Source of the DNA: an uncultured virus (IMG/VR IMGVR_UViG_3300022552_000006) | Lineage: Duplodnaviria; Heunggongvirae; Uroviricota; Caudoviricetes | Direction: 5' to 3' (one strand) | Virus record (IMG/VR): IMGVR_UViG_3300022552_000006 | DNA length: 20,000 bases | Shown here: piece after piece, positions 1,980 to 20,000 of the stretch | Layout: the number at the start of each line of letters is the position of its first letter | How positions within the stretch are numbered: the stretch's first letter is position 1 | Position numbers and translations under genes: made by a program | The notes under the pieces: generated by a model | The model's database searches: none | The model's input: only the letters and a program-made list of their open reading frames with translations | What the model was told of the DNA's origin: nothing

Positions 1980-1990
1980 AGGTGATCTCA

Positions 1991-3245: not shown

Positions 3246-6200
3246 ATGGTTAAATACAGAAGAGTTTATTATGATAGCGTTAAGAAATATGGCTTAAAGA
3301 TTGGCATCACTTCAATTCCTGTTGTTTTTCTTCTTTTTATGCTTCTTGCCCAAAGAGGAGATATTACTATAACAGGATATTCTGGGGACATGGTCTGTGC
3401 AGGGACGGAATTAGATCCCTGCTATGCTTACATTAACTTCACAGCCAACACGGACATTTATATTTATCCCAACGAGAATTGGACATTCAGCACGAACCCG
3501 CCAGTGAGGAAAGTTATCCTGCAAAGGAGCTGGCGGGATTCTTGGAGGACAATAAACCTGAGCAAGCCGTGGAATAAGAATGTGAAATACGCCATAAAAT
3601 TTAGCAAAGGAAAAAGCTATCAGATTAGATTTATTGGATACAAATATTATCCTTATGATGACATTAAATGGGGATTCGGGGACATAGACCCCGTTTGGTA
3701 TGGTGATAAATGGATTTCTCCATCATGGTCTAAAGAGATAAAGGAAGTGGTAGAATACAACAACGGAACGAGAGCAGTAGTAGATTTTGACAATATTAAT
3801 TTTGCCGATATAGATAGAGCTGGATTATGGTTAGGAGACGAAAAGAAGAACATAGCAGGATTTGATAAGTCACACGGGCAGATAATATTGTATCCTAAAG
3901 GATATGACAAGCCACCAGTTAATTTGTTTGTCAGGATACATGCGACAAAAGGAGCAAGCACTTACACTAAATGGCTAACAAGCAACAAAGGAAAACCGTA
4001 TTGGAACGAGAAGATACTGGATGACGGAGCCACGCAGAAAGAATTAGGATATTATACAAACTTGACATATAACATATTTACGTTCCCCTGTTCTATTGGC
4101 ATTAGAGGAGACACCCACCACGAGAAATGGAAGATACCGATAAATGTTTCAACACCGATAGATTTGGATGATATTTCGGTGGAATATATATTCGCTGTAA
4201 ATCCAGATTCGGCAAAGAAAATGAAGTATGTGAGAGTAGTCGGGAAAAACGGTAGCGAGCAATACAGATTAAACAAGCTTATAGACAAATCCGGAGAGAT
4301 TACACATAATTTTTATTTCTTGGATGAAAATAATAATACGATTTCATTTGTAGATTTTGAAAAGGAATTTAACCTTTCAAACTCTCAAGAGTGGAAGATA
4401 AAAAGAGTCACGCTCCCAAATGGGCAGTTCGTGTATGTCTTGTCGATTAGATTCAGCTTCGGAAGTTTGGATATGGACGAAGTGTTAAGTCTCAATGCCG
4501 ATTGGACGACTCCGAGCAGCGTGGAGAGTTACAGTTCCCAGAGCTCTTTAGATACTGCAAGTAAGTCGATAGACGATTCCACTTCGAGTTATTGGGATGA
4601 AAATATTGGTAATGATAAAGATGGTCCGACTTACGAGTGGTATATCACATACGATATGGGGGACACCTACACGATTTCGAAGATAAGAATCTATGCAGAT
4701 GGCGATGAGAGTTATAATCCTTGTAAAGTAGGAATCATAAAAGTCTGTGACGACCCTGACTGTAATGGAGAATCTAATTTGTTAAGTTCTGCATGTTCAT
4801 TTTCTACTAAAAAAGAATGGCAGGAATGTTCATTTACGGCTACTTCAGGAAGGTATATCGAAGTTCGAGGAGGAATACGTCAGCCGTTTGGTGACTGTGT
4901 TAATAAAATTAATTATTTTTATACTCAAGATTTTTACGAGTTCGACGCCTATGTCGAGAGCGGGGACACATCTCCACCATCATTCTCAAACTGGCAACAG
5001 CAACCGCCAGATTTGAACTCAAGTTCTTTGGGAAAGTTATATATAAATGTCACGATAACGGACGATTCTGGAGTCAATGAATCTTCCGTAAAATTCTATC
5101 ATTGGATAAATGATTCACAATATCCAGACCAACCTTGGTGCTTCTTAAATGGAACTGCTGGGGATTTCGAACACGAGCATACTATGACCAACACTTCGTC
5201 TGTATTCAACATAACTCTGCACACTTACGCATACAACCCGTCAACGCATAATGTCCACCCAGAAACGATGAGGTCGGCAACGAAATACAATTATAGCTTG
5301 GATTCAAATAACAAGGCATTAAAAGTCAGGTTTTACAACATTTCAACTCATCCGAATACAACTTTTGTCCTAAAGCCAAGGCTATACAGAAATTCCGGGA
5401 ATTTGTTGATTTATTATTGTAACAGCTCTTATACGACTGGCAAGGTATACAATTCTGATTATTGTATCCCTATAGCGACACTAACTTCTCAAGAAGACAC
5501 AAACTACCAGAATACATATTTCTATGGGGATGAAAATTCTCTTTTAGATGGTATTAAGATTACATCAACGGGATACATAGTGTTTTATGCGGAGGTAGGT
5601 TCGGACTGGGAAGTTGCTTACGCCAACATAGATTCAAACTCGGTTGAAACGACAGGAAATGGTGGAACATCTTGGACTAATCAAGATTATTCAGCAGATA
5701 CTTGGTTAATACAACTTAACGGAAATGGGCTAACTACCGTTGGATACAAAGTTTACGCTTGCGATAATGTAGGAAACTGCGATAATTCAACAGTCCAAAA
5801 GGACACCTATGCCATACATAATTTTGCACCTTCGCCAGCACCAGAAATATTAGTTCCTGAAAATTCAACTTATTCTGGAATTTTTAACATAACTTGGACA
5901 GCGTCAAAAGACCCGAACAGCGACCCATTCAACTACTCAATATACTTATATCATTCTAATAATACTTTAGCTGCAATATTGGCAGACAACAACATAACCG
6001 AAGGAACTGAATATTACACATTCGATTCGACAGGTTATCCAAACGGACAGTATTATTTAATGGCAAATGCCACAGATGATGTAGGTAACACGAACTTCTA
6101 CATTATGCCATATTATTTCACATTAGATAATAACCCACCGTTTTGGTCAGACAATTCCACGAATTCAACATTAGCAGGAAGCCCAATATTACATTCTTTA

Positions 6201-8339
6201 AAGTGGTATGATAATGATGGTCTAAGCGGTTATATTTTCAGTTTCTACAACGGAAGCAACACAACTTCTTGCGACGGGACTTTGGACTGCTCTGGACTAA
6301 GCTCCGCCCAATGTCAGGCATGTTCTCAATGTTCTTACACGGCAGAAAATTGTAGCGGAACGCCCAATTCTTGCGATTCATACTCAAGCCAAAGCGACTG
6401 CGAACTTTGCGGTTGCACTTGGAGTGGCGGGGGAGGGAGCTATAACACCTATACACCAGACGATAATGACTTTGTCTGTACATTAAGAGCATCAGGAGGG
6501 GATTACTCTAAAATTAATGATTGGAGAAGTGCAATAGCATGCGATTTAACAGATTCCAGCACAAAGATATTCACGGTTTCAGATAGAGGTAATTATGATT
6601 CAAGTGACGATGGAAAAACGGTTACATTTTCAGGGGGAGGAACAGGAACTTTAAAACACATAAGCACATTTAACAAAGCTTTAATCGTAAGTTGTAGTGG
6701 AACTATAAATACTGGAACTGTAACTATAAGTTCAGGACATACGTTTACAATTTCAGATACAGGGCAACAAGTAGGGGATGTTGTTTTAAGTCTTTATAAC
6801 GATTGGGCAAACGGTTATGATGAAGGCAGTGCTTATATAGACATTAAAAATTTTGTGACGGATGCTAATCATAAAGTAGTGATATGGACAAACGCAAGTG
6901 CGTCTGGGACTCAAGGCCCGAACAGGCATAATGGAACTGCAGAAAGTGGATTTTTCGTTAATGAAACAGGCAGTAGTTACACTTTTGTTTTTAGAATATC
7001 TCATGTTCTTGTAGAAGGAATAGAAATTCAGCAACCTTCAAAACCTTCTATGGGAGTTTTCTATATGGATAGTGGATTAAATAATACATTTAGGAATTTA
7101 CTAATACATAATGTCGGGGGAATTGTTTATCATGGGGAAGCTTCAACAATAGAAAATTCTATAATCTACGATTTTGGAAGTTCGGGATATTCGGTTGTAA
7201 GATTCAATAAAGTTAGAAGTTGTAGCATTTTAGCAATGGGTAGTGGTAGCTATAGCAATCAAATCATAGTTCGAAATGCAGAATGTTACAATGTTCTTGT
7301 CTATAACAATAATTCTGGAACTGGTTATAATGATTATTACTCTTGCACTGGGGATTATAATATAGGTTCAGATAGTTCTGCTCCCGGAAGTCATTCACAA
7401 CACAATAAAGCGTTAAGCGATATAGATTTTGTTTCTACAACACCGGGAAGTGAGGATTTGCACATTCAGTCCACTTCGTGTGCAAAAGATGCTGGCACGG
7501 ATTTGTCGTCTTATTTCACGGATGATATAGATGCGTGCACAAGGTCAGGAACTTGGGACATAGGAGCGGACGAATATGATTGCACTGGTGGTGGAGGAGG
7601 AAGTGGTTCGTGTTCAGGAACTCCAAACTCATGTTCAATAGGAACTTGCGAGGCGATATGCGGTTGTACTTATACTCCCGAGTCCTGCTCTAACTTAGGC
7701 TCTTGCTCTGCGTGCGGAACAGAAGGGGATTGTAGCGATTGTTCACCGGCAGGGTGCAGTTGGAGTTCGGTGGAATTTGTGAACGACTCTTGGGTATCAA
7801 TGTCAGGAACAACGGACTGGTCAAACGTGACTAAAGTTGTGAATTCGACAGTAGGGGCAACAATAAAGTGGAAAGTATACGCAAATGACAGTAATGATAA
7901 TTGGAATGTCTCAGATGTTTTTACTTATATAACGACAAGTGGTGGCGCTCCGTCTGTGACTTTCGATATAAATCATAACACGACCGCTAATATCATTCGT
8001 TTTGTTAATTGTTCTCCGGATTGGGCATTTTATCCTACATATCCAGAAAACCAGACAACCAATGACGGCATCATAAATGCTACAAATGATGGAACACAAA
8101 GCGGGAATTTTGAAATCGAATATGTCGGAACATTGAATACGGGTTGGACACTATGGGCTTGTAATGCGTCAACCAACGATCCAAAAACCTCTTCTAACTG
8201 CGTACAACTTACAAACAGCTGGCAGTTAATCTGGTATAATGTAGCGGTGGATGAACAAAAAGACATATGGTTATATGGCAATTGTAGTTATGTGACTGCT
8301 AATCCAAGAGTGGGTATAGATATGCAAGCGGTGAGTTAA
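3246..8339 (+). CDS. Large membrane-anchored/secreted multidomain adhesin-like protein (N-terminal TM, discoidin F5/8C-like, Ig/FN3-like, Cys-rich, parallel beta-helix)
   Basis: 1697 aa. Basic N-terminus then hydrophobic 'IGITSIPVVFLLFMLLA'. Discoidin-like segment ~4500-4950 ('WYITYDMGDTYTISKIRIY', 'SGRYIEV'). Beta-helix cap 'DLHIQSTSCAKDAG...DIDACTRSGTWDIGADEY'. Roughly 45-50 N-x-S/T sequons by manual count. GGTGA RBS. Confidence 0.8.
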   Translation: MVKYRRVYYDSVKKYGLKIGITSIPVVFLLFMLLAQRGDITITGYSGDMVCAGTELDPCYAYINFTANTDIYIYPNENWTFSTNPPVRKVILQRSWRDSWRTINLSKPWNKNVKYAIKFSKGKSYQIRFIGYKYYPYDDIKWGFGDIDPVWYGDKWISPSWSKEIKEVVEYNNGTRAVVDFDNINFADIDRAGLWLGDEKKNIAGFDKSHGQIILYPKGYDKPPVNLFVRIHATKGASTYTKWLTSNKGKPYWNEKILDDGATQKELGYYTNLTYNIFTFPCSIGIRGDTHHEKWKIPINVSTPIDLDDISVEYIFAVNPDSAKKMKYVRVVGKNGSEQYRLNKLIDKSGEITHNFYFLDENNNTISFVDFEKEFNLSNSQEWKIKRVTLPNGQFVYVLSIRFSFGSLDMDEVLSLNADWTTPSSVESYSSQSSLDTASKSIDDSTSSYWDENIGNDKDGPTYEWYITYDMGDTYTISKIRIYADGDESYNPCKVGIIKVCDDPDCNGESNLLSSACSFSTKKEWQECSFTATSGRYIEVRGGIRQPFGDCVNKINYFYTQDFYEFDAYVESGDTSPPSFSNWQQQPPDLNSSSLGKLYINVTITDDSGVNESSVKFYHWINDSQYPDQPWCFLNGTAGDFEHEHTMTNTSSVFNITLHTYAYNPSTHNVHPETMRSATKYNYSLDSNNKALKVRFYNISTHPNTTFVLKPRLYRNSGNLLIYYCNSSYTTGKVYNSDYCIPIATLTSQEDTNYQNTYFYGDENSLLDGIKITSTGYIVFYAEVGSDWEVAYANIDSNSVETTGNGGTSWTNQDYSADTWLIQLNGNGLTTVGYKVYACDNVGNCDNSTVQKDTYAIHNFAPSPAPEILVPENSTYSGIFNITWTASKDPNSDPFNYSIYLYHSNNTLAAILADNNITEGTEYYTFDSTGYPNGQYYLMANATDDVGNTNFYIMPYYFTLDNNPPFWSDNSTNSTLAGSPILHSLKWYDNDGLSGYIFSFYNGSNTTSCDGTLDCSGLSSAQCQACSQCSYTAENCSGTPNSCDSYSSQSDCELCGCTWSGGGGSYNTYTPDDNDFVCTLRASGGDYSKINDWRSAIACDLTDSSTKIFTVSDRGNYDSSDDGKTVTFSGGGTGTLKHISTFNKALIVSCSGTINTGTVTISSGHTFTISDTGQQVGDVVLSLYNDWANGYDEGSAYIDIKNFVTDANHKVVIWTNASASGTQGPNRHNGTAESGFFVNETGSSYTFVFRISHVLVEGIEIQQPSKPSMGVFYMDSGLNNTFRNLLIHNVGGIVYHGEASTIENSIIYDFGSSGYSVVRFNKVRSCSILAMGSGSYSNQIIVRNAECYNVLVYNNNSGTGYNDYYSCTGDYNIGSDSSAPGSHSQHNKALSDIDFVSTTPGSEDLHIQSTSCAKDAGTDLSSYFTDDIDACTRSGTWDIGADEYDCTGGGGGSGSCSGTPNSCSIGTCEAICGCTYTPESCSNLGSCSACGTEGDCSDCSPAGCSWSSVEFVNDSWVSMSGTTDWSNVTKVVNSTVGATIKWKVYANDSNDNWNVSDVFTYITTSGGAPSVTFDINHNTTANIIRFVNCSPDWAFYPTYPENQTTNDGIINATNDGTQSGNFEIEYVGTLNTGWTLWACNASTNDPKTSSNCVQLTNSWQLIWYNVAVDEQKDIWLYGNCSYVTANPRVGIDMQAVS

Positions 8340-10190
8340 TTGCCCCTTCAACTTTATGCCGAATTCAAAAAAACATTAGCAGAAACTATCACTTTATCAG
8401 ACACGAAAATAATTAAAACAAGCATAGAGATGGCGGAGACAGCAACATTTACCGATTCATTGGCAAAAAAGTCGCAGGCATTTTTCAGCGAAACACTTGA
8501 TTTGACGGATTCGGTATATAATTTTGCTAAAATAATCATATCGGATTTAATCGACTTTAGCGATTCGATAGCTAAGCAAGCATCTTATAAAAAAGCTTTA
8601 AGTGATTTGTTAAACTTATCCGACAGCTTAAAAAGCATAAAATCCTTACATAAGGCATTTCAAGAAACGCTTGATTTATCTGATTTCATTATTACCAAAA
8701 CAACATATCAAAAAATAATTTCAAATTCCATAACTCTATCCGATCAGCATTATATCAGCGCCCACAAAGTCATAGCCTCTACTTTAATCTTGTCTGATGT
8801 CAAAAAGTTTTTTATTAATAAAGTTCCTATTCAAGATGCTGTCAATTTAAGCGACAGTACATCTAAAAAGCCACAGAAAGTCATGATTGATTCAATAACT
8901 ATAAATGACGCACTCGAAAAAACGCTTGCCGCAGTCCGCATAATTTCCGAAACCTTGGATATAACAGATACTTTCGATAGAATTGGCACTTTTTATAGAA
9001 GCTTTAGCGACAGTATATCATTTTCTGATTCAGTGGAAAGAATAAAATCATATATAAAAGAACTTTCTGAATCAATATCATTGTTAGATTCGGTTATAAA
9101 GACTGGAAACTTCACGCGCGTGTGGACTGAAACTATAGACATAACAGATACTGTTCCAAAGGACTTGAAAAGGGCGTATCATGAATCTATTACATTAAAC
9201 GATCAAATTGAAAAAGTTTTTGGCAAGTCATTTGTATTTACAGAGACTTTGAATTTAACTGATACAACGCGAAAATTCGCAAAGCACCCTATTACAGATG
9301 CGCTCACTTTGGTCGATAGTTTAGCCAAGAAGAGTAACATTACGCTGACAGAGAGTATGAATGTTGCAGATTCTGTTATAAAAGGGGCAGGAAAGGTATT
9401 GTCAGATTTTCTCGCGCTTTCCGATTTTATTGGTTTTCAGAAGACAATTCATATTGTGTTCACGGATAGCTTTTCAATCAGTGATTTCATTGTCAAAGAT
9501 ACCAGCATATATTTCATTGACTCTATTTTTATTACAGATACTATACCAAAAGAGTTTCACAAAACCATTATAGAGCTAATAAATTTTGTGGATTATGCAT
9601 CAAGGTACACAAAATCATTCTTATCGGACAATTTGGTTTTAATTGATGCATCATATAAGCGTACATCAACGCAGCTTAGCGATTCTATGGCTTTGTCGGA
9701 TAGCATAAAAAAGAAGCCAAGCAAATGTTTGTATGAAACAATAACACTATCTGATTATTCAATTCGCTTTAGCAATAAAGTGATTTTGAATAGCATTAGT
9801 ATAACAGACACATTCAGCAGGCAGCTAACAAAATTCATAACTCTTTCCGACACATTAAGCTTGGCAGATTATATTCAAAAAATAAAAATACAATTGAAAG
9901 TTTTACAAGAGAAGCTAACTTTGACGGATACAATCAATAAAACACCACTCATTGAGCTACTTGATACAATCAGTTTGTTTGATTTCGCATTTATACGCCC
10001 TCCAATCGAGCTTTTCATTGAAGCAAAGAGAATCAAACCAATATTAAGCATCGTGAAATCCGAAGATATGGCTTTGGAAGCTGGAGAAGTGGCTCCAGCA
10101 TTGGCATTTATGGAAAAAACCGTCGGAAAGATGATAAAAGCAAAAAAGCATAAGCCAGCTCTTGCATCCAGCGATAGAGAGGGGGTTTAA
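8340..10190 (+). CDS. Repeat protein with 29 copies of an [E/D]-x-h-x-h-x-D motif at 18-20 aa period; putative fibre or filament scaffold
   Basis: TTG start directly after the upstream TAA, with GGTGA at 8329-8333. Repeats ETITLSD, ETATFTD, ETLDLTD ... DTISLFD counted by eye. Confidence 0.75.
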   Translation: MPLQLYAEFKKTLAETITLSDTKIIKTSIEMAETATFTDSLAKKSQAFFSETLDLTDSVYNFAKIIISDLIDFSDSIAKQASYKKALSDLLNLSDSLKSIKSLHKAFQETLDLSDFIITKTTYQKIISNSITLSDQHYISAHKVIASTLILSDVKKFFINKVPIQDAVNLSDSTSKKPQKVMIDSITINDALEKTLAAVRIISETLDITDTFDRIGTFYRSFSDSISFSDSVERIKSYIKELSESISLLDSVIKTGNFTRVWTETIDITDTVPKDLKRAYHESITLNDQIEKVFGKSFVFTETLNLTDTTRKFAKHPITDALTLVDSLAKKSNITLTESMNVADSVIKGAGKVLSDFLALSDFIGFQKTIHIVFTDSFSISDFIVKDTSIYFIDSIFITDTIPKEFHKTIIELINFVDYASRYTKSFLSDNLVLIDASYKRTSTQLSDSMALSDSIKKKPSKCLYETITLSDYSIRFSNKVILNSISITDTFSRQLTKFITLSDTLSLADYIQKIKIQLKVLQEKLTLTDTINKTPLIELLDTISLFDFAFIRPPIELFIEAKRIKPILSIVKSEDMALEAGEVAPALAFMEKTVGKMIKAKKHKPALASSDREGV

Positions 10191-10193
10191 ATA
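10186..10193 (+). promoter_or_regulatory. Possible archaeal TATA box for the neck/tail genes
   Basis: TTTAAATA preceded by purine-rich GAGAGGGGG, about 35-40 nt upstream of ATG 10229. The AT-rich context makes a chance match possible. Confidence 0.25.
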
Positions 10194-10228
10194 TTCGAGA
10201 TAAAAAAAAAGTATTAGAAGGTGATTAA

Positions 10229-11173
10229 ATGGGAATTTTATTGAGATGGAGATTGCCAGATTTGGATGAAGTGACTTATAACAAAACTGTTATTTATAGG
10301 GCGTCTTCGCAAACCGGGACTTATACACAAATTGCTGTACAGGACATTTCTGATAATACATATTTTGACCAGAGTGGGGCTACAAGCAACTGGTATAAAA
10401 TCAGGTTCAGGGGAGGCAGCGCTGGAAGTTATTTTTATTCTGATTATTCAGATGCTATGCAAGGTGGGACATGGCGCGGTTATTGTAGCCCAGATGATGT
10501 TAGGCTGTTAGCTAATTTAAGCTCAACAGATATAAGCGATTCCACTTTATATGACATAATTACATTTGCTATGGCCCAGTTAAATCATGAAATAAACTCA
10601 AAAATAATAGAAGAGACTGTCGAAGAAATAGATTCCACGCGCGAAAACAAAATTGACGGGTCAAACAAAACATTTTATGTAAAAAAATCATTTGACTGGT
10701 ACATCGGAGACCTCGATGATGATGGAGATGTTGATACAGATGATATAGAAGTTTATGAATATGATAGCGATGGTAACAGAACACAGATGACAGTATCTGA
10801 AATATATCCAAATGAGGGCAAGTTTGTGCTTAGCTCGGCGCCATCGTCAGGAAGCACATTGAAAGTTACATACACCTATGCTCCGGTATCCGAAAGCGAT
10901 CCACATCCGTTATTGAGGCAAGCCTGTGCATACCTTGCCGCGTCTTTAGCCTACACGCGCATTGAAACTGGCTATTATGAAAAATTGCAGCTTGGTAAGC
11001 TTACATTGCAAAATATGACAAGCGGATTTACAAAGCATTTTAACCAATATCAAAGGATTTTGCACTATCTCAAGACAAGGATGCTCAGGAGAACAGACGA
11101 CAAGGATTTCTGGAGGAAAGAGTTTGTAACGCCTTGGACTTCAGACAAGACTGGGCGAATTGGAGTGAGATAA
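10229..11173 (+). CDS. Head-tail adaptor/connector (SPP1 gp15/HK97 gp6-like) with N-terminal FN3-like and inserted beta domains
   Basis: 'YCSPDDVRLL...IITFAMAQLNHEI' and 'HPLLRQACAYLAASLAY' are adaptor-like helices. N-terminal 'LRWRLP...IYRA...YFD...WYKIR' is FN3-like. AGGTGA RBS. Synteny. Confidence 0.7.
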   Translation: MGILLRWRLPDLDEVTYNKTVIYRASSQTGTYTQIAVQDISDNTYFDQSGATSNWYKIRFRGGSAGSYFYSDYSDAMQGGTWRGYCSPDDVRLLANLSSTDISDSTLYDIITFAMAQLNHEINSKIIEETVEEIDSTRENKIDGSNKTFYVKKSFDWYIGDLDDDGDVDTDDIEVYEYDSDGNRTQMTVSEIYPNEGKFVLSSAPSSGSTLKVTYTYAPVSESDPHPLLRQACAYLAASLAYTRIETGYYEKLQLGKLTLQNMTSGFTKHFNQYQRILHYLKTRMLRRTDDKDFWRKEFVTPWTSDKTGRIGVR

Positions 11174-11174
11174 T

Positions 11175-11621: not shown

Positions 11622-11653
11622 ATTCGACTTGGGTAAATTGAATTAGAAACTGT

Positions 11654-11700
11654 GCCTCGCTGGAGGCTTATGCCGTTGGGCAATTAATCTCGCTGGAGAT
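11654..11700 (+). promoter_or_regulatory. Three tandem short hairpins with C-GYTG-G loops; the last contains the RBS of the next gene
   Basis: gcctc-gctg-gaggc (11654-11667), tgcc-gttg-ggca (11671-11682), atctc-gctg-gagat (11687-11700). Confidence 0.55.
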
Positions 11701-11703
11701 ATT

Positions 11704-12171
11704 ATGGTAAGCCTGAATACGTTAGGAGACGATGCAATTACATTTTTTAGAGATGTCCTTAGGCAAAATCTTCAAGATAAGCAAAATCCTCAGCGATCGG
11801 GAAGCGAATGGATTTATAAATCCCGTCCCGCGACCAAAGAAATTGACTTGCCATTTGTCATAGTAACCGAAAATAAGGAAGAGTCGACAAGAATAACCAT
11901 CGATAGGGCAAGTGTCAAATTGAGCAGTCCAGTAATTCGATTGGACATTCGCGTTTGGGCACACAAGATAAATCATAGGGATGAAATTGCCGACCAGATT
12001 GTTAAAGTGCTTAAAAACCCTGCATCTTCAGACGGCTCAAAAACTATAGCACAAAATTATTTTGTGTTCAAGCGCTATGAAAAATATGAAGAGGACGGCA
12101 AAATTGCCGACTTTCCCGAAATATTGCGCATAAAGAGAGTGATGATAGAATTTGCTTATATAGGTGGATAA
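11704..12171 (+). CDS. Putative tail terminator/tail completion protein (SPP1 gp17/lambda gpU-like)
   Basis: Pattern 'LPFVIV...RLDIRVWAH...RDEIADQIVKVL...KRVMIEF'. Located between the neck and tail tube genes. Confidence 0.65.
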   Translation: MVSLNTLGDDAITFFRDVLRQNLQDKQNPQRSGSEWIYKSRPATKEIDLPFVIVTENKEESTRITIDRASVKLSSPVIRLDIRVWAHKINHRDEIADQIVKVLKNPASSDGSKTIAQNYFVFKRYEKYEEDGKIADFPEILRIKRVMIEFAYIGG

Positions 12172-12172
12172 G

Positions 12173-12652
12173 ATGACGCTTACAATTAGAATAAGACTTA
12201 AAGGTATTGAAAAAATTAATAAAAGATGGAAACTGTTCAGAAAGGTAAGCCAATTAACCGTGCCAGAAGTGGACAAAATTGGCGATGCAATTACGCGAAT
12301 CGCGAAACAACTAGCGCCAAAGTTCGAATATGGTCTTAGCGAGGGAATTGAATATAGCGTTACATCCACGCATAACAAAAATTCGCTGTTAATAGAAAAT
12401 AATGTAAGGTATGCTTACTTCCAAGAATCAGGTTTCACACCACATTATGCGCCAATAACCGAATATGCGAAAAGATGGCTTGATGCTCATAGCACCGGTG
12501 CCAGTGGACATCAACCTGGAAAAAAAGGATATTTTTTCGTCAAGAAATATACACCTCACATTGATCCCGCAGTTGAGCTTGTGAGGCCTGATATTCCCCG
12601 TGTTTTAAAGGGAAAAGTTGATAGCATAATAGCAAAAATCGGAGGGATTTAA
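12173..12652 (+). CDS. HK97 gp10-like neck/tail component
   Basis: 'IRLKGIEKI', 'AKQLAPKFEYGLSEGI', 'NVRYAYFQESG', 'PHIDPAVE' match the gp10-like pattern. ATG 12173 follows AGGTGG; alternative GTG start at 12164. Confidence 0.7.
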   Translation: MTLTIRIRLKGIEKINKRWKLFRKVSQLTVPEVDKIGDAITRIAKQLAPKFEYGLSEGIEYSVTSTHNKNSLLIENNVRYAYFQESGFTPHYAPITEYAKRWLDAHSTGASGHQPGKKGYFFVKKYTPHIDPAVELVRPDIPRVLKGKVDSIIAKIGGI

Positions 12653-12895
12653 ATGAAATATAAGGTAAAAGTGTCTAAATGGTTTTTGGAAAACAAATCA
12701 AATCCAGATGCAAAATTACCAGTAAAAGTTAACGGCAAAATAGAACTTATAGGAAAACCAGAAGACGAAGTCATAACAGATAACATACAGGGAATAGAAA
12801 ATGACCCGAGATTTATTATCGAACCGGTCAAAAAGGAAAAGAAAAAAGAAGAAAAGCCAGAAAAGATTGAAATAAACAAGAAGGAGGAGATGTAA
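12653..12895 (+). CDS. Small lysine/glutamate-rich hypothetical protein
   Basis: 80 aa, GGAGG RBS, abuts both neighbours. Confidence 0.65.
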   Translation: MKYKVKVSKWFLENKSNPDAKLPVKVNGKIELIGKPEDEVITDNIQGIENDPRFIIEPVKKEKKKEEKPEKIEINKKEEM

Positions 12896-12896
12896 A

Positions 12897-13508
12897 ATGG
12901 CATTAGCAGCTGGAGCATGGAGTGAAACTGCGTTAGTAACCATAACAAAGTTGGGGAGCTCAAATGTTGAGTTTGCAGCCTTAACCGAGACAATAGACAT
13001 AGATATGGGAGACAAAGACATCGACCACATAGTTAATGTTAGCGGTGGAAGAATGGTAAAGAAAACTCCACAAGACATAACAACAATAACTTTTGAGGGA
13101 TACCCTCTCGATATTGATTCAACAAACGGTACAGGCGTTTCCCAAATGTTCGAAGGAGGGACATGGGGCACAACTGAACCACTTGAAGCGTCTGCAAGCC
13201 GTAGCCGTGACTTGTTCAGAATTGCAATATTGTGGACTGATGACACATCAGCAACATCTGCAGCTGGAGCAACTGCAACATCGACAAACTCATACAGAAT
13301 TGTGTTTGCACACTGTTGGATGACAAGCATGAAGCCAAGCTTTACCGACGGAGTCCTTAAGTTTACATTTTCGTTTAAGTGTCCGGCATTCAACCCGATG
13401 GGAACAGCCAACATAAAAGAGCAGTCAGGTGACGATACTGCACTAACAACATTAAACGATTATAGCACTTCAAATTATCCTCCAAGAGGAAGCTCTTACA
13501 CATGGTGA
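12897..13508 (+). CDS. Putative major tail tube protein, paralog 1
   Basis: 203 aa, T/S rich with beta pattern, strong GGAGGAG RBS. Lies after tail completion genes and before chaperones and tape measure. Confidence 0.7.
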   Translation: MALAAGAWSETALVTITKLGSSNVEFAALTETIDIDMGDKDIDHIVNVSGGRMVKKTPQDITTITFEGYPLDIDSTNGTGVSQMFEGGTWGTTEPLEASASRSRDLFRIAILWTDDTSATSAAGATATSTNSYRIVFAHCWMTSMKPSFTDGVLKFTFSFKCPAFNPMGTANIKEQSGDDTALTTLNDYSTSNYPPRGSSYTW

Positions 13509-13514
13509 TGAAAA

Positions 13515-14153
13515 ATGACATTAGCAGCTGGAGCATGGAGCGAGACCGCATTGGTTTCGATTGCATATTATGGAAATGGATCGCAATCTAACAATGATAT
13601 GCAGTTTGCAGCATTAACCGAAACGATAGATATAGATATGGGCGACAAGGACATTGATCAAATTGTAAGTGTAGCGGGGGGTAGACTCGTGAAAAAAGTG
13701 CCCCAAGATTTAACTACAATCACTTTCGAGCTTTATCCGCTTGACATTGATGCAAAAGGTGAAACAGGGATTTCGCAGATATTTCATGACATATCATCAA
13801 ACTGGGATTCTTCTGAACCGCTTGAAGTTTCGGCAACAAGAAACAGGGATTTATACAGGATAGCAATCTTATGGACAGATGATACAAGTGTTACGACAGC
13901 CAATGGTGCAATATCTTCAGGTAACAATGCATACAGAATTATATTTGCGCACGCATACTGTACAAGTTACAAGCCATCATTTACCGATGGTGTGCTTAAA
14001 GTAACAGCCACATTCAAAGTGCCCGCTTTCAATCCTAACGGCGTTGCAAACATTCACGAGCAATCTACAGATGGAACTGCAACAATAAGTGCATTGAATA
14101 CATACAATTCATCAAACTATAATCCAAATGGAAGCTCTGCTTACTCTTGGTAA
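13515..14153 (+). CDS. Putative major tail tube protein, paralog 2
   Basis: 212 aa, collinear with paralog 1: shared LAAGAWSETALV, FAALTETIDIDMGDKDID, RIAILWTDDTS, KPSFTDGVLK. GGTGA RBS. Confidence 0.7.
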   Translation: MTLAAGAWSETALVSIAYYGNGSQSNNDMQFAALTETIDIDMGDKDIDQIVSVAGGRLVKKVPQDLTTITFELYPLDIDAKGETGISQIFHDISSNWDSSEPLEVSATRNRDLYRIAILWTDDTSVTTANGAISSGNNAYRIIFAHAYCTSYKPSFTDGVLKVTATFKVPAFNPNGVANIHEQSTDGTATISALNTYNSSNYNPNGSSAYSW

Positions 14154-14192
14154 GACACACCCCAATAGGCAAGAAAGTGAAGAGGTGAATAG

Positions 14193-14888
14193 ATGAAACA
14201 ACCAAAAGTTTTAGTAGCCGCTCCAACATGGGAAGGGCATAAATACATATTGCCCAAGTATTTAAATAGAGTTAAGAATCTCGACTATGACAATTATTCA
14301 GTTTTGCTTGTAAACAATGGAAAAAGCAAGTCTTTTTCAAAGTGGCTTATAAAACAAGGTGTGAAAGTAATCAAAATTCATTACAAGAATAATATATTTG
14401 AAAGGATAACAGATGCCAGAAACGCGATAATAAATTATGTTCTTCAACATCCGGACATCAAATATTTGCTTAGCTTGGATACCGATGTAATACCGCCAAA
14501 AAATATAATTACCAAGCTATTGAACCATAAAAAGCCGCTTGTGGGGTCGCTTGTGCATGCTGGCTATTATCATAAAGTACCTTGTATTTTGAAAGACGGA
14601 TATTTGATTAAGAAAGGACAAAGAGGCTTGTCTTTTTATAGCTGGAAAGAAGTTGTTAAAATGAGGCAAAAGAAACCATTACATAAAGTTTGGGGAACTT
14701 CTGTTGCGTGCTTGTTAATACACAGAAAAATATTTGAAGCTGGAGTCAAATTCCGTTATACACCATATTTTCATGTGGGGGAAGATATATGGTTTATGTC
14801 TGAGGCCAACGAAAAAGGCTTTTCGTTTTATGTTGATGTCAGTAAGCGAATTCCCCATTATAATATGCCGAAGAGGGTGAGCAAATGA
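14193..14888 (+). CDS. Glycosyltransferase, GT-A fold (family 2-like)
   Basis: 'KVLVAAPT', 'VLLVNNG', 'DARN', DxD motif 'LLSLDTDV', 'ACLLIHRKIFE', 'GEDIWF'. GAGGTGA RBS. Confidence 0.85.
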   Translation: MKQPKVLVAAPTWEGHKYILPKYLNRVKNLDYDNYSVLLVNNGKSKSFSKWLIKQGVKVIKIHYKNNIFERITDARNAIINYVLQHPDIKYLLSLDTDVIPPKNIITKLLNHKKPLVGSLVHAGYYHKVPCILKDGYLIKKGQRGLSFYSWKEVVKMRQKKPLHKVWGTSVACLLIHRKIFEAGVKFRYTPYFHVGEDIWFMSEANEKGFSFYVDVSKRIPHYNMPKRVSK

Positions 14889-15169
14889 AAGAGATTGATA
14901 ATGTTAAACAATTTTTGAAAGACCATAAACCTGACTTGAGCATTTCGAGGGTTCCGAAAAAAACACTCGAAATTTTCAAGCAGCTTGCAAAAGACGAATT
15001 TGCAAACGATTATGGAATGACATTAAAATATCTTGTAGATTATGCTATTAGAGATGCAAAGTATATGGAGCTATCCCAAAGGCTTCTTATACTTGAAGAA
15101 AAAGTGTTAAGCGAAAAGAAAAAAACGATAAAAACACTATCGGGAAAAGTCATAAAGGAGGTGGAATAG
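14885..15169 (+). CDS. Putative ribbon-helix-helix DNA-binding protein with coiled-coil tail
   Basis: 'LSISRVPKKTLEIFKQLAKDEF...GMTLKYLVDYAI' has the strand-helix-helix RHH pattern. ATGA overlap with the GT gene. Confidence 0.5.
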   Translation: MKEIDNVKQFLKDHKPDLSISRVPKKTLEIFKQLAKDEFANDYGMTLKYLVDYAIRDAKYMELSQRLLILEEKVLSEKKKTIKTLSGKVIKEVE

Positions 15170-15170
15170 A

Positions 15171-15605
15171 ATGGATATTAGTAAGGAGGAAATTGAAAAA
15201 CTCAGAAAGCATATGGGATTGGCGCAAGAATTTAAAATCGGCAATGATACATTTCATTTCAAGCCATTGAATGCAGAAGACATTCCAGACCTGATTGAAA
15301 TAATAAGAGTATTCAAAAACGCTGCAGAATCAGGCAAAGAAGATACAACATGGCTGGATGCAATGGACAGGGAATCAATGCTCAAGCTAATCAAACTGCT
15401 TAAGAAAATGGTTAGCATATCTTACCCTGACCTTAGCGAAGAGGAAGTGAAGAGTTTTGTATCTGCAAACTTCATCAACTTGACAATAATAATGATGCAG
15501 ATAAACGATCTTGGCGCCAAGAATGTAAATAGAATACAGGAAAAGCTTGCTGAGTTGAGAAGCCGAAGAATGCCTAAGCAGGCGAAAGCAAATGGTGGCG
15601 CCTAA
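15171..15605 (+). CDS. Putative tail assembly chaperone
   Basis: 144 aa: 'EFKIGNDTFHFKPLNAEDIPDL' followed by helices. Located between tail tube and tape measure genes. GGAGGTG RBS. Confidence 0.65.
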   Translation: MDISKEEIEKLRKHMGLAQEFKIGNDTFHFKPLNAEDIPDLIEIIRVFKNAAESGKEDTTWLDAMDRESMLKLIKLLKKMVSISYPDLSEEEVKSFVSANFINLTIIMMQINDLGAKNVNRIQEKLAELRSRRMPKQAKANGGA

Positions 15606-15819
15606 GCTAAGAGAAATACTTGATAAGGCAAAGTCCAGAGATTTGGCAAGAATACATCACAACTTGATGCAGTATTATCAGTGCTGGATTCCTGTTGAAG
15701 AATTTAGAAAGATACCGATTCCCACTTTAATAGACCTGCTTGAATACATAGACCAAGATTTAAGCAAAATTCCTCCTTCAAAAATAGGTGGAAGGAGATT
15801 GTATGGTCGAAACAAGTAA
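15592..15819 (+). CDS. Small pre-tape-measure protein (second chaperone-like ORF)
   Basis: 75 aa. 'WIPVEEFRKIPIPTLIDLL' resembles the helical motif of gpT-like chaperone halves. Overlaps both neighbours. Confidence 0.55.
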   Translation: MVAPKLREILDKAKSRDLARIHHNLMQYYQCWIPVEEFRKIPIPTLIDLLEYIDQDLSKIPPSKIGGRRLYGRNK

Positions 15820-18190
15820 ATTGAGAGTTATAATAGAGTTCATTACAGAAAACTTGGCAGCTGTTAGCAAGGCTGGTTTGGAACTAAGAAAAATACGAGA
15901 AGCTTCAAGAGCCTTGGGTATAAGCTGGACTCGCACTGGTAGCGCAATAAAGAAAGGCACCAAAGGTTTTATTGATCCAATTGAAGCGAGCTCTCAAGTA
16001 TTGGAGCGACAAGCTGCATTTGGCGTAGTTGCCAACGATGTTATGAAAGGTTTGCAAGAAAATGCACAAGCATTTGGAGTAACTTTTGCTAGTACAGGAA
16101 AGATAATTGACCAGCAAACAGGCAGGTTTACATCTCTTTATGGAGCGGTCAGAAAAGCTCAAGAAGCATATCCGCCATTCACATCCAAACAAGAGGCAGT
16201 TCAGCATTTTACATCTGCATTACGAATAACGCAAGACCAGCTTATGGAAAAACTGAAATTAGCCAATTTGACCATAAAAGAGAATGGGGAAATATGGGAT
16301 AACATAAGGCATAGTCAAATGAGTGTTAGGGAAGCCACAAAAATACTATCGCGTACATTCAGGCATTTTCAGATGCAATTGCTATCTGTGATGTTCTTTG
16401 GCATGAACATAAACAAGATGTTTATGGGATGGCTTAAGCCTGCAATGGAAGCTTATGGTATATTTGACCTTTGGAATGACATGTTGCTTGTCACGATGTT
16501 GCCTGTAATGGATGACCTTTCTGATACGCTTTATAATGTTATGTTTGCAATTATGGACTTGCCCGAACCTGTGCAGAGAGCAATTGGCTGGCTTACTGTC
16601 ATGGGTGCAGTCGGCGGCAAGTTGCTTTATTCATTCGGTGTAATTGGTCTTGGCATTAATGGATTAGTTCAAGCATTTCCAATTTTAGGTAAATTAGCAA
16701 CAAAGTTGTCAGTGCTTGGAACTGGATCAGTAGAAGCAGCTGCAACTTATAATGCTTCAGTAACAGGTATGGCGGAAAGCACTGTAGGAGCGTCTACAAT
16801 TTCGATTACTTCTATTGCTAGTTTGGTTTCTTTTATCGCTACAGCGGCTTTATTAATATATTCTGCATGGAAAGAAATGGGAAATGTAATGACAATAAAT
16901 AACAAAATAGCTCTTGATAAACAGAAAAAAGACTGGGATTCTTACAGAACGCATACATTAATGCGTTCGATTGAAATGCAAAATATGGTTCCACGTATTA
17001 TACAAAGAATGCTATACACCGTGGGCAGTATTGTGCATCAAGTAGGTACTATGCTTGCGATGGGATTTGAAGATTTAATTACTCTTGTGGCACATGGCTA
17101 TAATTTTATAGCTCGATTTGCTATAGGTCAGCTTATAGGTGCGTTTAAGCAACTTTTCTCATGGCTTAAGAACCTTCCAGGAACAGCAGGCGAATTTTTC
17201 GGAGACCTTTTAAATAAGATGGATATATTTGAGGCAAATCTTGCTACAACAATGACTAAATGGGATGAAGACATTGAAAAGGCACATGCTGATAGAATGA
17301 CACGAATTGTTCAAAATTCAACAAATGCTGCAACAGATGCAGCACGAAGATTTGAACAAGACATGGCAGAAGCCACAAAAGAAACCATCAAAAATATGAT
17401 AAAAATGAAAATTCCAGTAAAGGATATTGTAGATGTTTATGGTGACCAGAAAGCAGCTATGGATGTTATGTGGGAAGCTGCGAGAAGCGGCGAAATATCA
17501 ATGAAAGAATTAAATGATGCTGTGTGGGAACATAACAAAGACCTTCAGCAGGCGGCTATAAGCACCGGAAATTTTGGAATGAGCGTTGACGAACTCAAAA
17601 ACAAAATTAGTGCAGATTACAACAGTATCCTGAATGATGCAAAGACTACATTCCCAGCTATCAGCTCAATAGGAATAACTTCTGTTGATGATGTCAACAA
17701 GGCATTTGACGAGATGAGCAATAATTATAAGACAAATTCCACTACAATATTGCAGACTGCAAATACCGATTCAAGTCAAACATCTTCCGCATGGGAAGAT
17801 GCCATGAATGAAATGAAAGAAACAACAAATACTACGGTAACCGCGATTAATAAAACACTTGATAAAATCAAGCGCGAAATTCACACTTACCACTATCTCC
17901 ATAAAATTACAACTTATGGATATATATCAAAAGGCGGTGGAGTCTCATCCAAATATGTTGCATTCCAAGAAGGAGGCATAGTCTTAAGACCAACTTTAGG
18001 GCTTCTTGGAGAAGCAGGACCTGAAGCAGTTATACCATTGAATAAGGCAAGAAGTAGCATGCCTACAGTTATAAATTATAATCCGACAATAAATATATCA
18101 GCTGAAATCTCGAATGAGGTTGATATTGACAGGCTGATGAATAGAATAGACGACCATATCGTTGGAAAATTAAGGCAGATGGTGAGTTAA
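15803..18190 (+). CDS. Tail tape measure protein
   Basis: About 795 aa, helical and Ala-rich with central hydrophobic segments. C-terminal TMP motif 'FQEGGIVLRPTLGLLGEAGPEAVIPLN'. ATG 15803 follows GGAG; alternative GTG start at 15788. Confidence 0.9.
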   Translation: MVETSKLRVIIEFITENLAAVSKAGLELRKIREASRALGISWTRTGSAIKKGTKGFIDPIEASSQVLERQAAFGVVANDVMKGLQENAQAFGVTFASTGKIIDQQTGRFTSLYGAVRKAQEAYPPFTSKQEAVQHFTSALRITQDQLMEKLKLANLTIKENGEIWDNIRHSQMSVREATKILSRTFRHFQMQLLSVMFFGMNINKMFMGWLKPAMEAYGIFDLWNDMLLVTMLPVMDDLSDTLYNVMFAIMDLPEPVQRAIGWLTVMGAVGGKLLYSFGVIGLGINGLVQAFPILGKLATKLSVLGTGSVEAAATYNASVTGMAESTVGASTISITSIASLVSFIATAALLIYSAWKEMGNVMTINNKIALDKQKKDWDSYRTHTLMRSIEMQNMVPRIIQRMLYTVGSIVHQVGTMLAMGFEDLITLVAHGYNFIARFAIGQLIGAFKQLFSWLKNLPGTAGEFFGDLLNKMDIFEANLATTMTKWDEDIEKAHADRMTRIVQNSTNAATDAARRFEQDMAEATKETIKNMIKMKIPVKDIVDVYGDQKAAMDVMWEAARSGEISMKELNDAVWEHNKDLQQAAISTGNFGMSVDELKNKISADYNSILNDAKTTFPAISSIGITSVDDVNKAFDEMSNNYKTNSTTILQTANTDSSQTSSAWEDAMNEMKETTNTTVTAINKTLDKIKREIHTYHYLHKITTYGYISKGGGVSSKYVAFQEGGIVLRPTLGLLGEAGPEAVIPLNKARSSMPTVINYNPTINISAEISNEVDIDRLMNRIDDHIVGKLRQMVS

Positions 18191-18606
18191 TGACAAATAA
18201 TGTAACAATTACTAAAAGCGGGGTGGGAACAGTTTATATTTTTACCCAGAGCATTGAAGAGCTTATTACAAAAAAGCCACGATATATCCGGGTTCCGCGT
18301 TCCTACCAAAAATGGGATCAAGGCCCTAAAACAATGGTTATCGACACGCTTGTTGTGACGCATAATTTTGTAATAAACGGGGAAATAACTCGAGCTGAAG
18401 GAGACACTGCACAACAGCAAAGAGATAAGCTCAGAACTATAGCCGAACAGAAAGGCGGGACTGTTACCTTGAATTATGACGGCACAGACTACGAAGTTTT
18501 CATTGACAAATGTTCAATAAAGGAAGAAAGCCATGATGAAGATACGCCAGATTCCTATAGCGTTATATTGAATGTAACCGAAGCGGAGCAAAGAGGTGGA
18601 AGCTAA
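18190..18606 (+). CDS. Putative distal tail (Dit-like) protein
   Basis: 138 aa immediately after the TMP gene (TAATG overlap). Beta-helix-beta pattern of minimal Dit proteins. Call rests mainly on synteny. Confidence 0.55.
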   Translation: MTNNVTITKSGVGTVYIFTQSIEELITKKPRYIRVPRSYQKWDQGPKTMVIDTLVVTHNFVINGEITRAEGDTAQQQRDKLRTIAEQKGGTVTLNYDGTDYEVFIDKCSIKEESHDEDTPDSYSVILNVTEAEQRGGS

Positions 18607-20000
18607 TGGTAGACAAAAAAACAATTGGACTGCTAATTGTAATGATATTGCTTAGTGGCGCAGTTTACATAACTCTTTCTGGACAGGGCGTTAAGATAAG
18701 AGTTGACAAAGATAAAGCCACATTTTATGTTTTTGATGATAACATTCACAGATGGGTTGTTGGCGGCAGGGAATACAACAAGCTGTTTGATGGTTCCAGT
18801 CTTATGCACCGCAACCTGAGCAGCATCTATATTAATGTTACAAATACGAGCGATACGGTTACAATAACTCGCTTTACAAAGTATATTCGCGGTCCCATAA
18901 TCATTGACACTTGGTTTTTTAACGGCAAAATAAGCGATAAAAAGCTCTTTCCTATCTATCATAAGATTCAAGTAATTAATGGTTCTAGACTGTTTTACAG
19001 GTATGAAGCACGCGACCTTGACTATTCTGGGCAGACACACAAGCTTAATGGCGAGACGCATCTTGACTTTGGTAAGCATATTACAGTAAATTTACAGAAA
19101 GGTTATCGCTGGGCATGGGTTTACAAATCTGGCATTGTTAAGGCGCAGTATGACATAGACAGCGATAATAAAACTTTTTACATAAGGTTGTTTGATCCAA
19201 CTTGGATTATAGATAATAATAAAGTTTATGTAAATGATTACAATGTTTACTCATCAGTAGAACCACACACGCTTCATAGCCCCGGATGGATATACTGGGA
19301 TTTCAAGTCAAAGGTTTACAGTGGAAATGTTGACATGCTGTGGGGATTTAACACAACACTGGGAGTAAGACCTGTAAAAGCAGAGCTTAAATATCCGCAC
19401 AATGTGTCTTGGAACACTACGCACTCGAAAGTTTTTTACAATGTTAGTTTCTCTCCCACTACAGATAGTTGCGACTACGGTTATGAATACAACACGCACA
19501 AGTATTTGATAACTTACACTGAGCCATTTTATAATGCTGCAAATTCTACTGATTGGAACTCTACAAGTGCTGTCGTTTGCTTCGACCTTTATGAGGATTT
19601 GGGCAACAGCGACTACCGTGCGATATGGCACCAGGAACACACGAAGACTGTGAACTGGCTCGATGTGTCTAATAGGTTCAATTCAATTGACTACGAATTT
19701 GGTGGCATGAACAAGTGGTATTACGTCACGAACATCCCTATACAAAAAAATGTCCAATACACTATGAGGGCTTACGTGAAAGTTCCCGTTTCGCTTGAGC
19801 CGTCTTCTGGAAAATACTGGGTTGCGTTTAAGCCAAGCTCGGAGAGTTTGCATCAAGCCATTCAAAATGGGCATCTATATTACTTAGACCCATGGTGGAA
19901 CACATCTTTTAGTTATAGAAGAAGAATAAACATAACAAATTCTGATATTTATAATTATAATAATGTTTCTGTAGTTTTTTGGTTTAATCATGATGGAAAA
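18606..20000 (+). CDS. Membrane-anchored/secreted protein, 3'-truncated, entering a DUF2341-like domain (not in the supplied ORF track)
   Basis: Manual translation is open for 465 codons to the window end: MVDKKTIGLLIVMILLSGAVYITLSG... About 14 N-x-S/T sequons. Near the end '...LDPWWNTSFSYRRRINITN', the WWN..YR..I.I pattern that precedes DUF2341. TAATG overlap and GAGGTGG RBS. Confidence 0.8.
   Translation, partial: MVDKKTIGLLIVMILLSGAVYITLSGQGVKIRVDKDKATFYVFDDNIHRWVVGGREYNKLFDGSSLMHRNLSSIYINVTNTSDTVTITRFTKYIRGPIIIDTWFFNGKISDKKLFPIYHKIQVINGSRLFYRYEARDLDYSGQTHKLNGETHLDFGKHITVNLQKGYRWAWVYKSGIVKAQYDIDSDNKTFYIRLFDPTWIIDNNKVYVNDYNVYSSVEPHTLHSPGWIYWDFKSKVYSGNVDMLWGFNTTLGVRPVKAELKYPHNVSWNTTHSKVFYNVSFSPTTDSCDYGYEYNTHKYLITYTEPFYNAANSTDWNSTSAVVCFDLYEDLGNSDYRAIWHQEHTKTVNWLDVSNRFNSIDYEFGGMNKWYYVTNIPIQKNVQYTMRAYVKVPVSLEPSSGKYWVAFKPSSESLHQAIQNGHLYYLDPWWNTSFSYRRRINITNSDIYNYNNVSVVFWFNHDGK

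Follow-up and report, generated by a model that had tools for sequence, protein, structure and literature searches.

Giant helix-bearing, sequon-rich proteins in the head and tail-fibre slots of an uncultivated archaeal siphovirus

By the textbook account, tailed virions are put together entirely in the cytoplasm, and AglB-dependent N-glycosylation takes place outside the membrane. What, then, could proteins of an exported type be doing in the structural operon of a tailed virus? The question is posed by 20,000 nucleotides of an uncultured virus of the Caudoviricetes (IMG/VR record IMGVR_UViG_3300022552_000006; this whole stretch is “the window”), which encode, in one operon with all sizeable genes on the + strand, the structural proteins of an uncultivated archaeal siphovirus. 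Two giant open reading frames (ORFs) are at issue: BIG, on the head side, and LAST, the window's copy of a tail-slot protein that we call X throughout. Two well-supported facts collide here, namely that the proteins are of an extracytoplasmic kind and that the tail-slot gene acts like an indispensable tail-tip gene. We found that both ORFs have one virus-specific architecture, consisting of a basic N-terminus, a helix of about 19 residues, a membrane-proximal beta-sandwich (the N-module), a shuffled domain array, and a common C-terminal domain (the C-cap). That BIG and X are host-recognition fibres, matured outside the membrane and added to the particle at egress, is our tentative preference, held at slightly short of even confidence. 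The features of the two ORFs are given below (aa, amino acids; KD, Kyte-Doolittle hydropathy; sequon, N-x-S/T).

3246..8339, + strand: BIG, head-side giant exported-type protein, 1697 aa, with basic tail, transmembrane helix, N-module, shuffled domain array and C-terminal domain; 48 sequons
3246..3293, + strand: basic N-terminal tail of BIG, residues 1-16, YRR[VI]Y..[VI]KK[YW], predicted cytoplasmic (alignments; flank charge +4 vs -1)
3294..3350, + strand: hydrophobic helix of BIG, residues 17-35, signal anchor or signal peptide (KD 2.25)
3351..3701, + strand: N-module ectodomain of BIG, residues 36-152, beta-sandwich; Cys pair C51/C59 and an N-F-T sequon conserved (AF2 pLDDT 79.5, pTM 0.72)
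4569..4865, + strand: weak F5/8 type C (galactose-binding-like) match, residues 442-540 (Pfam PF22633, E 2.5e-4, 22.1 bits, below the 27.8 cut-off)
4962..6245, + strand: conserved middle module of BIG, residues 573-1000 (67-83% identity in 8 other large proteins)
6270..6416, + strand: Cys-rich linker 1, residues 1009-1057 (Cys positions)
7611..7757, + strand: Cys-rich linker 2, residues 1456-1504 (Cys positions; motif CSGTPNSC...CGCT like linker 1)
8022..8291, + strand: C-cap, shared C-terminal domain, homologous to the C-terminus of tail-slot proteins (hhalign 93% probability, E 2.9e-7, 81 columns)
18606..20000, + strand, 3' open: LAST/X, tail-slot giant exported-type protein, first 465 aa of the 1753-aa P0043; 14 sequons in the window part
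18621..18677, + strand: hydrophobic helix of LAST, residues 6-24 (KD 2.36; family N-termini)

Helices were scored with a 19-residue KD window and by flank charge. The best window lies at residue 17 of the 1697-aa protein (2.25) and at residue 6 of the second (2.36), with K/R before each, in agreement with the first-pass annotation of this DNA, which had described a basic N-region and a hydrophobic helix in both. No N-terminal window exceeds 1.3 in any other ORF of the window, and an internal one occurs in the tape measure alone (2.05). Both proteins had also been called sequon-rich, at about 45-50 and about 14 sequons, and our counts are 48 and 14. Over 1000 shuffles the expectations were 28.6 +/- 4.6 for ORF 3246-8339 (z 4.3, 1.7-fold excess) and 5.6 +/- 2.0 for the 465 aa of ORF 18606..20000 (z 4.2, 2.5-fold). 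The major capsid protein (MCP; 2 observed vs 3.2 expected) and the tube proteins (2 vs 1.9 and 3 vs 3.1) have no such excess, and z is at most 2.2 in the other 20 ORFs of the window.

The same signature recurs in G002, a complete syntenic relative (79,771 bp, CheckV 100%, about 70% nucleotide identity). Both of its slot proteins have an N-terminal helix, with 66 sequons vs 27.3 expected and 49 vs 19.6, and with 32 and 37 Cys; its other ORFs have sequon z of at most 2.7, and across the 61 of these that reach 100 aa there are 97 sequons in total vs 98.5 expected. The excess is specific to the sequon register in the four slot proteins: none of 400 shuffles reached the observed counts (z 4.4 and 4.2 in the window, 8.5 and 7.0 in G002), and NxT is favoured among the sequons. 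Reversed [ST]xN, QxS/T, DxS/T and NxxS/T all fall within about one standard deviation of expectation, and N[ST] reaches a z of at most 2.05, in one protein. Because these control registers are flat, local co-enrichment of N, S and T is not a sufficient account.

The two ORFs belong to a large family. A profile of the N-module retrieved 542 cluster representatives at E<=0.001 among 1.84 billion proteins, and in every one of the 150 matches listed the module begins by residue 30; a second search gave at least 280 proteins, the longest contig being 80,423 bp among the 120 matches listed. In 119 of these 120 listed members a helix with KD of at least 1.7 lies within the first 70 residues. Together the 120 proteins contain 5586 sequons vs 2302 expected, with z>=3 in 106 and an even Cys count in 89. 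The flanks follow the positive-inside rule (mean N-flank +2.77 vs C-flank -1.96; N>C in 119 of 121), from which the window's LAST departs. Across 35 viral loci the protein sequence of the N-terminal tail and helix is conserved, and the C-cap carries sequons at fixed, conserved columns. In the middle module of BIG, sequon Asn are more conserved than other Asn (0.77 vs 0.58, p 0.004), as are the +2 Ser/Thr of sequons compared with other Ser/Thr (0.81 vs 0.70, p 0.018), in both cases over 11 related homologues that are not independent. LAST-type relatives (n=63) all have sequon z of at least 3, with 3067 sequons vs 1253 expected, and many of them carry textbook A-x-A signal peptides in place of the anchor. 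Type IV pilin-like proteins have a class III signal peptide, in which a charged residue and G/A stand right before the hydrophobic stretch as the prepilin peptidase site; by eye, the family N-termini before the helix read ..K-I-G, T-I-G or Y-M-G, with no K/R at -2. The claim that extracytoplasmic N-glycoproteins lie inside a tailed-virus structural operon has strong support from register-specific sequons at conserved positions, positive-inside flanks, even Cys counts, and the kept gene slots described below. Judged from their sequences, these proteins are very probably exported and N-glycosylated.

Between N-module and C-cap the domain repertoire is lectin-like/carbohydrate-binding, Kelch-propeller and NosD/beta-helix. 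BIG contains 48 Cys (2.8%), and its ortholog in the same slot of G002 (1844 aa) has two DUF2341 domains and NosD/beta-helix domains. The pair form a mosaic: identity is 38% in the N-terminal 176 aa, 71% in the middle module (428 aa) and 34% in the C-terminal 108 aa. LAST continues beyond the window, in P0043, with DUF2341, a Kelch propeller and the C-cap. The G002 tail-slot protein (1596 aa) also has a Kelch propeller and follows a tape measure and a 134-aa ORF. Over the last 690 aa P0043 is orthologous to it (30%; 46% over the final 69 aa), and the first 1000 aa are unrelated; since the C-terminal 690 aa alone are common to the two, the first 465 aa of LAST found no match in the viral contigs or in G002. 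Conserved ends around an exchanged middle are, by analogy, the pattern of receptor-binding proteins. The two Cys-rich linkers of BIG, which share CSGTPNSC...CGCT[WY] and have about 10 Cys per 49 residues, stand on either side of its central part; they might form disulfide knots or bind metal.

Remote comparisons added little to these assignments. A scan of exact peptide patterns in 185,579 species genomes, which is weak evidence of absence, found no relative of either the N-module or the middle module, and tblastn with the N-module and the hub gave no match in the GenBank phage collection (50,697 records for the N-module). No PDB sequence match of the hub, the N-module or the Dit-like protein fell below E 0.4. 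The N-module model had no Foldseek match at E<=0.001, the weak top rows being FlaF/FlaG and archaellins (E about 0.013, TM 0.2-0.3). A wide VIA-align search gave best Z values of 5.5 for the N-module and 6.9 for a C-terminal model (pLDDT 53), against a noise level of about 8. With the C-cap, the Atlas search had a top score of 0.83, a weak lead to hypothetical proteins of DPANN archaea. The C-terminal domain of the X protein of locus L022 (residues 163-297) gave sub-noise rows to fibre subunits of the donor-strand-complemented kind: Pyrodictium cannulae (Z 6.9), chaperone-usher pilins, and archaeal bundling pili/threads (Z 5-6.6). These weak, model-based rows point to strand exchange as a way in which the shared C-terminal domain might polymerise or dock.

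Are these genes fixed parts of the operon? The junctions are as had been reported: 2955..3245 abuts 3246..8339, which abuts 8340..10190, and 18190..18606 overlaps 18606..20000 (3' open) by one base. Gene family matches likewise agree that the first ORF lies between head and neck genes. The genes ahead of LAST are these.

15788..18190, + strand: tail tape measure protein (phrog_991, E 3.9e-13)
18190..18606, + strand: 138-aa Dit-like tail-tip protein (position after the tape measure; structural lead to Dit_like/CIS_tube/GpU, TM 0.63-0.72, Atlas)

The statement that the second ORF follows Dit holds by position; the identity of the 138-aa protein has a structural lead alone, with no sequence match in Pfam or the PDB. 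Among the 35 viral loci retrieved with the N-module profile, the N-module gene stands after a tape measure and a Dit-like gene and before a hub in 10, and on the head/neck side in six; the remaining loci are without recognisable neighbours. The N-module ORFs of at least 300 aa in these loci (n=26) all have KD of at least 1.7, and 23 have z of at least 3; the other three score 2.9, 1.3 and, in a truncated ORF, 0.7. Additional ORFs with helix and sequons often stand in tandem, with up to three or four copies per genome (L020, L024, L032, L037/38, L044).

A second set of 31 loci was anchored on the hub; 12 of these share a contig with the N-module set. One locus without upstream DNA and three with an upstream ORF cut by the contig end were set aside, leaving 27 informative. 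The order tape measure, Dit-like, X, hub places a helix-bearing, sequon-rich ORF (825-1750 aa, z 4.6-14) directly 5' of the hub in all 27; X is split into two ORFs in two of these, and a 103-aa ORF intervenes in one. An ORF of 102-187 aa (Dit-like) precedes X in 25 of the 27. Coordinates for 11 loci place the tail-slot gene between the Dit-like connector and the hub, and its start overlaps or adjoins the preceding gene. Hub identities to the query range from 26 to 47% across the set, so the tail-slot arrangement is old. Relatives therefore keep the genes in the same operon slots (both slots in G002, and 27/27 hub-anchored loci), and these are not recent morons, which the first-pass annotation had named as a finding that would tell against it. 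In the split tail-slot genes (L031 8832-13571 / L060; L016 9914-14736 / L080) the first ORF holds the helix and N-module, and the second has no helix and a sequon z of 7.1-9.0; either a frameshift/assembly error or a genuine two-part form could account for this.

The expectation that the second ORF would itself be the hub (Tal) did not survive. X has no match to the hub families (gp27/gpD/YqbQ-like), and P0043 belongs to no PHROG family. A separate hub gene of 479-500 aa (PF24032 YQBQ-like; phrog_177 “baseplate hub”) follows X in relatives, and the slot is that of the tail-fibre gene of Haloferax virus HFTV1; X is accordingly not the hub. In NCBIfam the hub had one sub-threshold “phage protein” match (20.4 bits vs a cut-off of 170). 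There is no other large tail gene 3' of the hub in G002. The tail module closes, immediately 3' of that hub, with an 81-aa ORF (L010 9603-9848) that has two hydrophobic stretches and is a holin-like candidate.

HFTV1 (GenBank MG550112) is the closest guide to this slot. Its gene order is gp40 (tape measure), gp41, gp42 (tail fibre), gp43, gp44 (hub) and the end of the module, so that both viruses have a tape measure, a small connector, a large gene in the fibre slot, a hub, and then the module end. Over its residues 55-364, gp44 is a homologue of the hub family (hhalign 95.5%, E 1.6e-8, 287 columns); the Dit-like profile has no hhalign similarity to gp41. Cryo-EM of HFTV1 shows gp42 as trimeric fibres whose anchoring point is the hub N-terminus (PMC12494034). 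The position of X between the Dit-like ORF and the hub in 27/27 loci, the same slot as that of the HFTV1 fibre, supports a role in the virion. On the head side, the HFTV1 turret gp31 (glycan-binding/deacetylase-like) is head-borne, carbohydrate-directed and encoded in the structural module, and BIG has its weak galactose-binding-like match; gp31 nevertheless lacks helix and sequon excess, BIG is four times larger and of export type, and we claim no homology.

If BIG and X are fibres that join the particle late, the pathway might run as follows. The Sec/signal recognition particle (SRP) machinery of the host would insert each protein N-in/C-out, host AglB would N-glycosylate the ectodomain, disulfides would form, and the glycan would perhaps be altered by a viral glycosyltransferase of type GT2. 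BIG, in the place where HFTV1 has its glycan-binding head turret, would be a head-side recognition fibre. The fibres would be matured at the membrane's outer face, and the particle assembled in the cytoplasm would gain them when the membrane is breached at egress; capture of the fibre by the hub would thus be an extracellular last assembly step. That the particle is finished outside the cytoplasm in this manner, with a tail fibre (in some members a head fibre) that is Sec-exported, N-glycosylated by the host and captured by the hub at egress only, is a possibility to which we give somewhat less than even credence.

A number of observations weigh against late-joining fibres. We know of no tailed virus that takes up an exported protein. 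The helix, with an h-region of 17-19 residues and no consistent AxA site in the alignment as judged by eye, resembles an uncleaved anchor, which leaves release from the membrane unexplained. The cytoplasmic tail of LAST-type proteins, at 4-8 residues, is too short for docking a particle from the inside, and the flank charges of LAST itself (+1 vs +2) are ambiguous. The N-module and C-cap are common to head- and tail-slot copies, and neither is obviously a site-specific docking domain. The HFTV1 proteins gp42, gp31 and gp44 have no helix (KD 0.3-0.5), sequon z of 0.9, -0.6 and 0.3, and 1-2 Cys. In particular, gp42 is a 443-aa protein with KD 0.32, z 0.9 and 1 Cys, whereas X has 825-1750 aa, a helix, z 4.6-14 and many Cys; and hhalign of the C-terminal 300 aa of X against gp42 gave 0.3%, with no detectable similarity of the C-cap. 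To our knowledge, HFTV1 is the only structurally solved archaeal siphovirus, and its slot protein is an ordinary cytoplasmic fibre. Finally, the C-terminal domain of the hub could itself be the adhesin, as annotated in verdandiviruses (10.1101/2021.07.29.453957).

In the main rival reading the proteins, once exported and glycosylated, never enter the particle; the first-pass annotation had put forward both acquisition by the virion and redecoration of the host surface. They may instead act on the surface of the infected cell or under the S-layer, a reading that we regard as possible, though on balance improbable. There they might mask or destroy receptors (blocking superinfection, or keeping progeny from sticking to debris), serve as adhesins that hold or recruit cells, or degrade the envelope for egress; their place beside the hub would follow from the need for their specificity to move together with the adsorption module. 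No new cell biology would be required, and N-in/C-out topology with tiny cytoplasmic tails suits such a role. The tandem copies, up to three or four per genome, resemble a surface-protein arsenal, and lectin-like, Kelch-propeller and NosD/beta-helix domains are those of glycan-binding or glycan-cleaving proteins. Analogues exist in T5 Llp and Cor, encoded beside receptor-binding genes, and in influenza neuraminidase, an N-anchored receptor-destroying propeller. The small holin-like ORF after the hub of G002 fits as well, and egress of tailed archaeal viruses is uncharacterised according to a review of archaeal virus entry and egress. Yet an accessory gene of 825-1750 aa fixed in a tail-tip cassette in 27/27 loci, at hub identities of 26-47%, would be unusual, the more so in the fibre slot of HFTV1; without X, the only fibre candidate of G002 would be the C-terminal domain of its hub. 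Nor did any of the four slot proteins match a PADLOC defence model (0 families at E<=0.01), although that library hardly covers such proteins.

Export itself could be doubted. The proteins would then be ordinary virion fibres made in the cytoplasm, the helix either buried, as a trimerisation or hub-plug element, or used for membrane insertion during infection in the way of tape-measure hydrophobic segments, and the excess of sequons and Cys a legacy of captured host surface domains. The tape measures of the same viruses are strongly hydrophobic too (KD 2.05, 2.51), and the middle modules are 67-83% identical to those of proteins with classical signal peptides, which indicates that domain exchange is active. 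We nonetheless consider this quite unlikely: an N-terminal 19-residue helix with positive-inside flanks in 119/121 members is of the type recognised by SRP, sequons are conserved above background in the middle module, the N-module and C-cap have theirs at fixed positions, and the only contigs on record with an N-module are of viral size. A decaying legacy would also look different from an enrichment in 106/120 and 63/63 members. Least credible of all, to the point of being nearly dismissible, is an artefact of composition or of mis-called starts. The window has a GC content of 38% and both giant proteins are rich in N, S and T, as such an artefact would need, but the shuffles never reached the observed counts in four proteins, the other registers are flat, tail and helix are conserved across the 35 viral loci, and other ORFs of the same genomes have no excess.

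The late-joining fibre that we favour has partial parallels elsewhere. The VP4-type spikes of pleolipoviruses and the end adhesins of fusello- and halspiviruses are membrane-anchored glycoproteins of membrane-containing archaeal viruses. As proposed here, those viruses make large receptor-binding proteins by way of host export and N-glycosylation; their virions, however, contain or acquire a membrane, whereas the HK97-type MCP, portal, large terminase subunit (TerL), tube and tape measure found here are those of a membrane-less tailed virus. Nothing in this analysis favours a virion membrane, which had been raised as one explanation. T5 Llp and the Cor protein of T1/phi80 are phage membrane proteins that are encoded beside receptor-binding genes and mask the receptor. 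They share with X the genetic linkage of an exported phage protein to the adsorption module, but are small lipoproteins of patchy occurrence, whereas X is giant, modular, and in its slot in 27/27 loci. Verdandiviruses, tailed viruses of Asgard archaea, are of interest in that some N-module proteins bear the names of Asgard metagenome-assembled genomes (MAGs); the available text on them mentions adhesins and glycosylated capsid proteins for archaeal viruses, and in that text no helix-anchored or sequon-rich tail protein is mentioned (10.1101/2021.07.29.453957). More widely, the accessible literature, with subscription journals and supplements outside its scope, held no description of helix-anchored, sequon-rich proteins in the structural modules of tailed archaeal viruses.

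The DPANN host proposed earlier for this virus is not established. Source names of homologues are split between Aenigmarchaeota, for two middle-module matches, and the Asgard lineages Helarchaeota, Heimdallarchaeaceae and Promethearchaeota, for three N-module matches. These named homologues may be viral contigs binned with MAGs, and a DPANN host is possible for this virus.

Whichever role is right, an uncultivated clade (542 N-module cluster representatives; 27/27 hub-anchored loci) puts proteins of an export, N-glycosylation and disulfide type in the fibre slot. If they belong to the virion, these would be the first tailed virions with N-glycoproteins made by a host pathway and with an extracellular assembly step. 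If they act at the cell surface, the largest late genes would be devoted to re-dressing the surface of a dying cell. Both outcomes matter for how tailed archaeal viruses get out of, and back into, cells covered by S-layers and glycan coats, and for the role of the glycosyltransferases that are common in archaeal virus genomes. The N-module also provides a sequence marker for finding these viruses in metagenomes.

The remainder of the operon is that of a tailed virus, with the following further assignments.

410..1420, + strand: HK97-type major capsid protein (phrog_1357, E 3.9e-13; 86% identity in G002)
2296..2910, + strand: fibre-like protein, two genes 5' of BIG (phrog_5417, 2.8e-22; phrog_4176 “tail fiber protein”, 1e-12)
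8340..10190, + strand: 616-aa repeat protein, directly 3' of BIG (phrog_12240, function unassigned, 1.7e-26)
14193..14888, + strand: GT2-type glycosyltransferase, within the tail module (Pfam Anp1 8.2e-7, Glycos_transf_2 9.4e-6, both above cut-off)

At the 5' end a scaffold-like protein is followed by the MCP, small head genes and the fibre-like protein (2296-2910). The sole match of the MCP in the GenBank phage collection is an Altiarchaeum virus (39% over 35% of the MCP), and that record has nothing comparable. Between the fibre-like gene and BIG lies a 96-aa ORF alone (2955..3245). The fibre-like gene is also found 5' of the N-module gene in L015, L017 and L043, three loci in which the gene of the 616-aa protein likewise follows the head-side giant gene. 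The 616-aa protein consists of about two dozen degenerate units of about 22 residues (..LSDS..K..), with no DNA-level repeats in 8300-10250 by Tandem Repeats Finder (TRF), and may be a fibrous head or neck appendage. A 314-aa protein comes after it, and then head-closure and neck proteins (phrog_161, phrog_5).

In the tail module, two neighbouring genes (12897-13508 and 13515-14153) encode tube-sized paralogues of 203 and 212 aa. Their N-termini are nearly identical, and their C-terminal tails, rich in Ser, Thr and Asn, end in ..SYTW and ..AYSW; neither protein has a family match. The GT2 protein, which is soluble, sits between these tube genes and the tail chaperones. It has relatives by tblastn in six related loci (L015, L046, L055, L062, L065/G002, L068), and it could tailor the glycan of the exported proteins or glycosylate virion proteins directly. 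Chaperone-sized ORFs lie between GT2 and the tape measure, and no slippery site for a chaperone frameshift is evident by eye at 15590-15610.

Upstream of the window part, G001, a viral record identical over window positions 1-15852, adds terminase, portal and a nuclease-ligase. The latter, a metallo-beta-lactamase-fold nuclease with an ATP-dependent DNA ligase, lies between the portal and scaffold genes (G001 L013 7778-12411; G002 L001 3796-8616), a location unusual for such enzymes; it is encoded by two ORFs in G001 and by a single 1606-aa ORF with a LAGLIDADG match in G002. Elsewhere in G002 (L010 16522-18564), a trypsin-like peptidase is split by an intein (Intein_splicing, 1.8e-18), which fits an archaeal virus.

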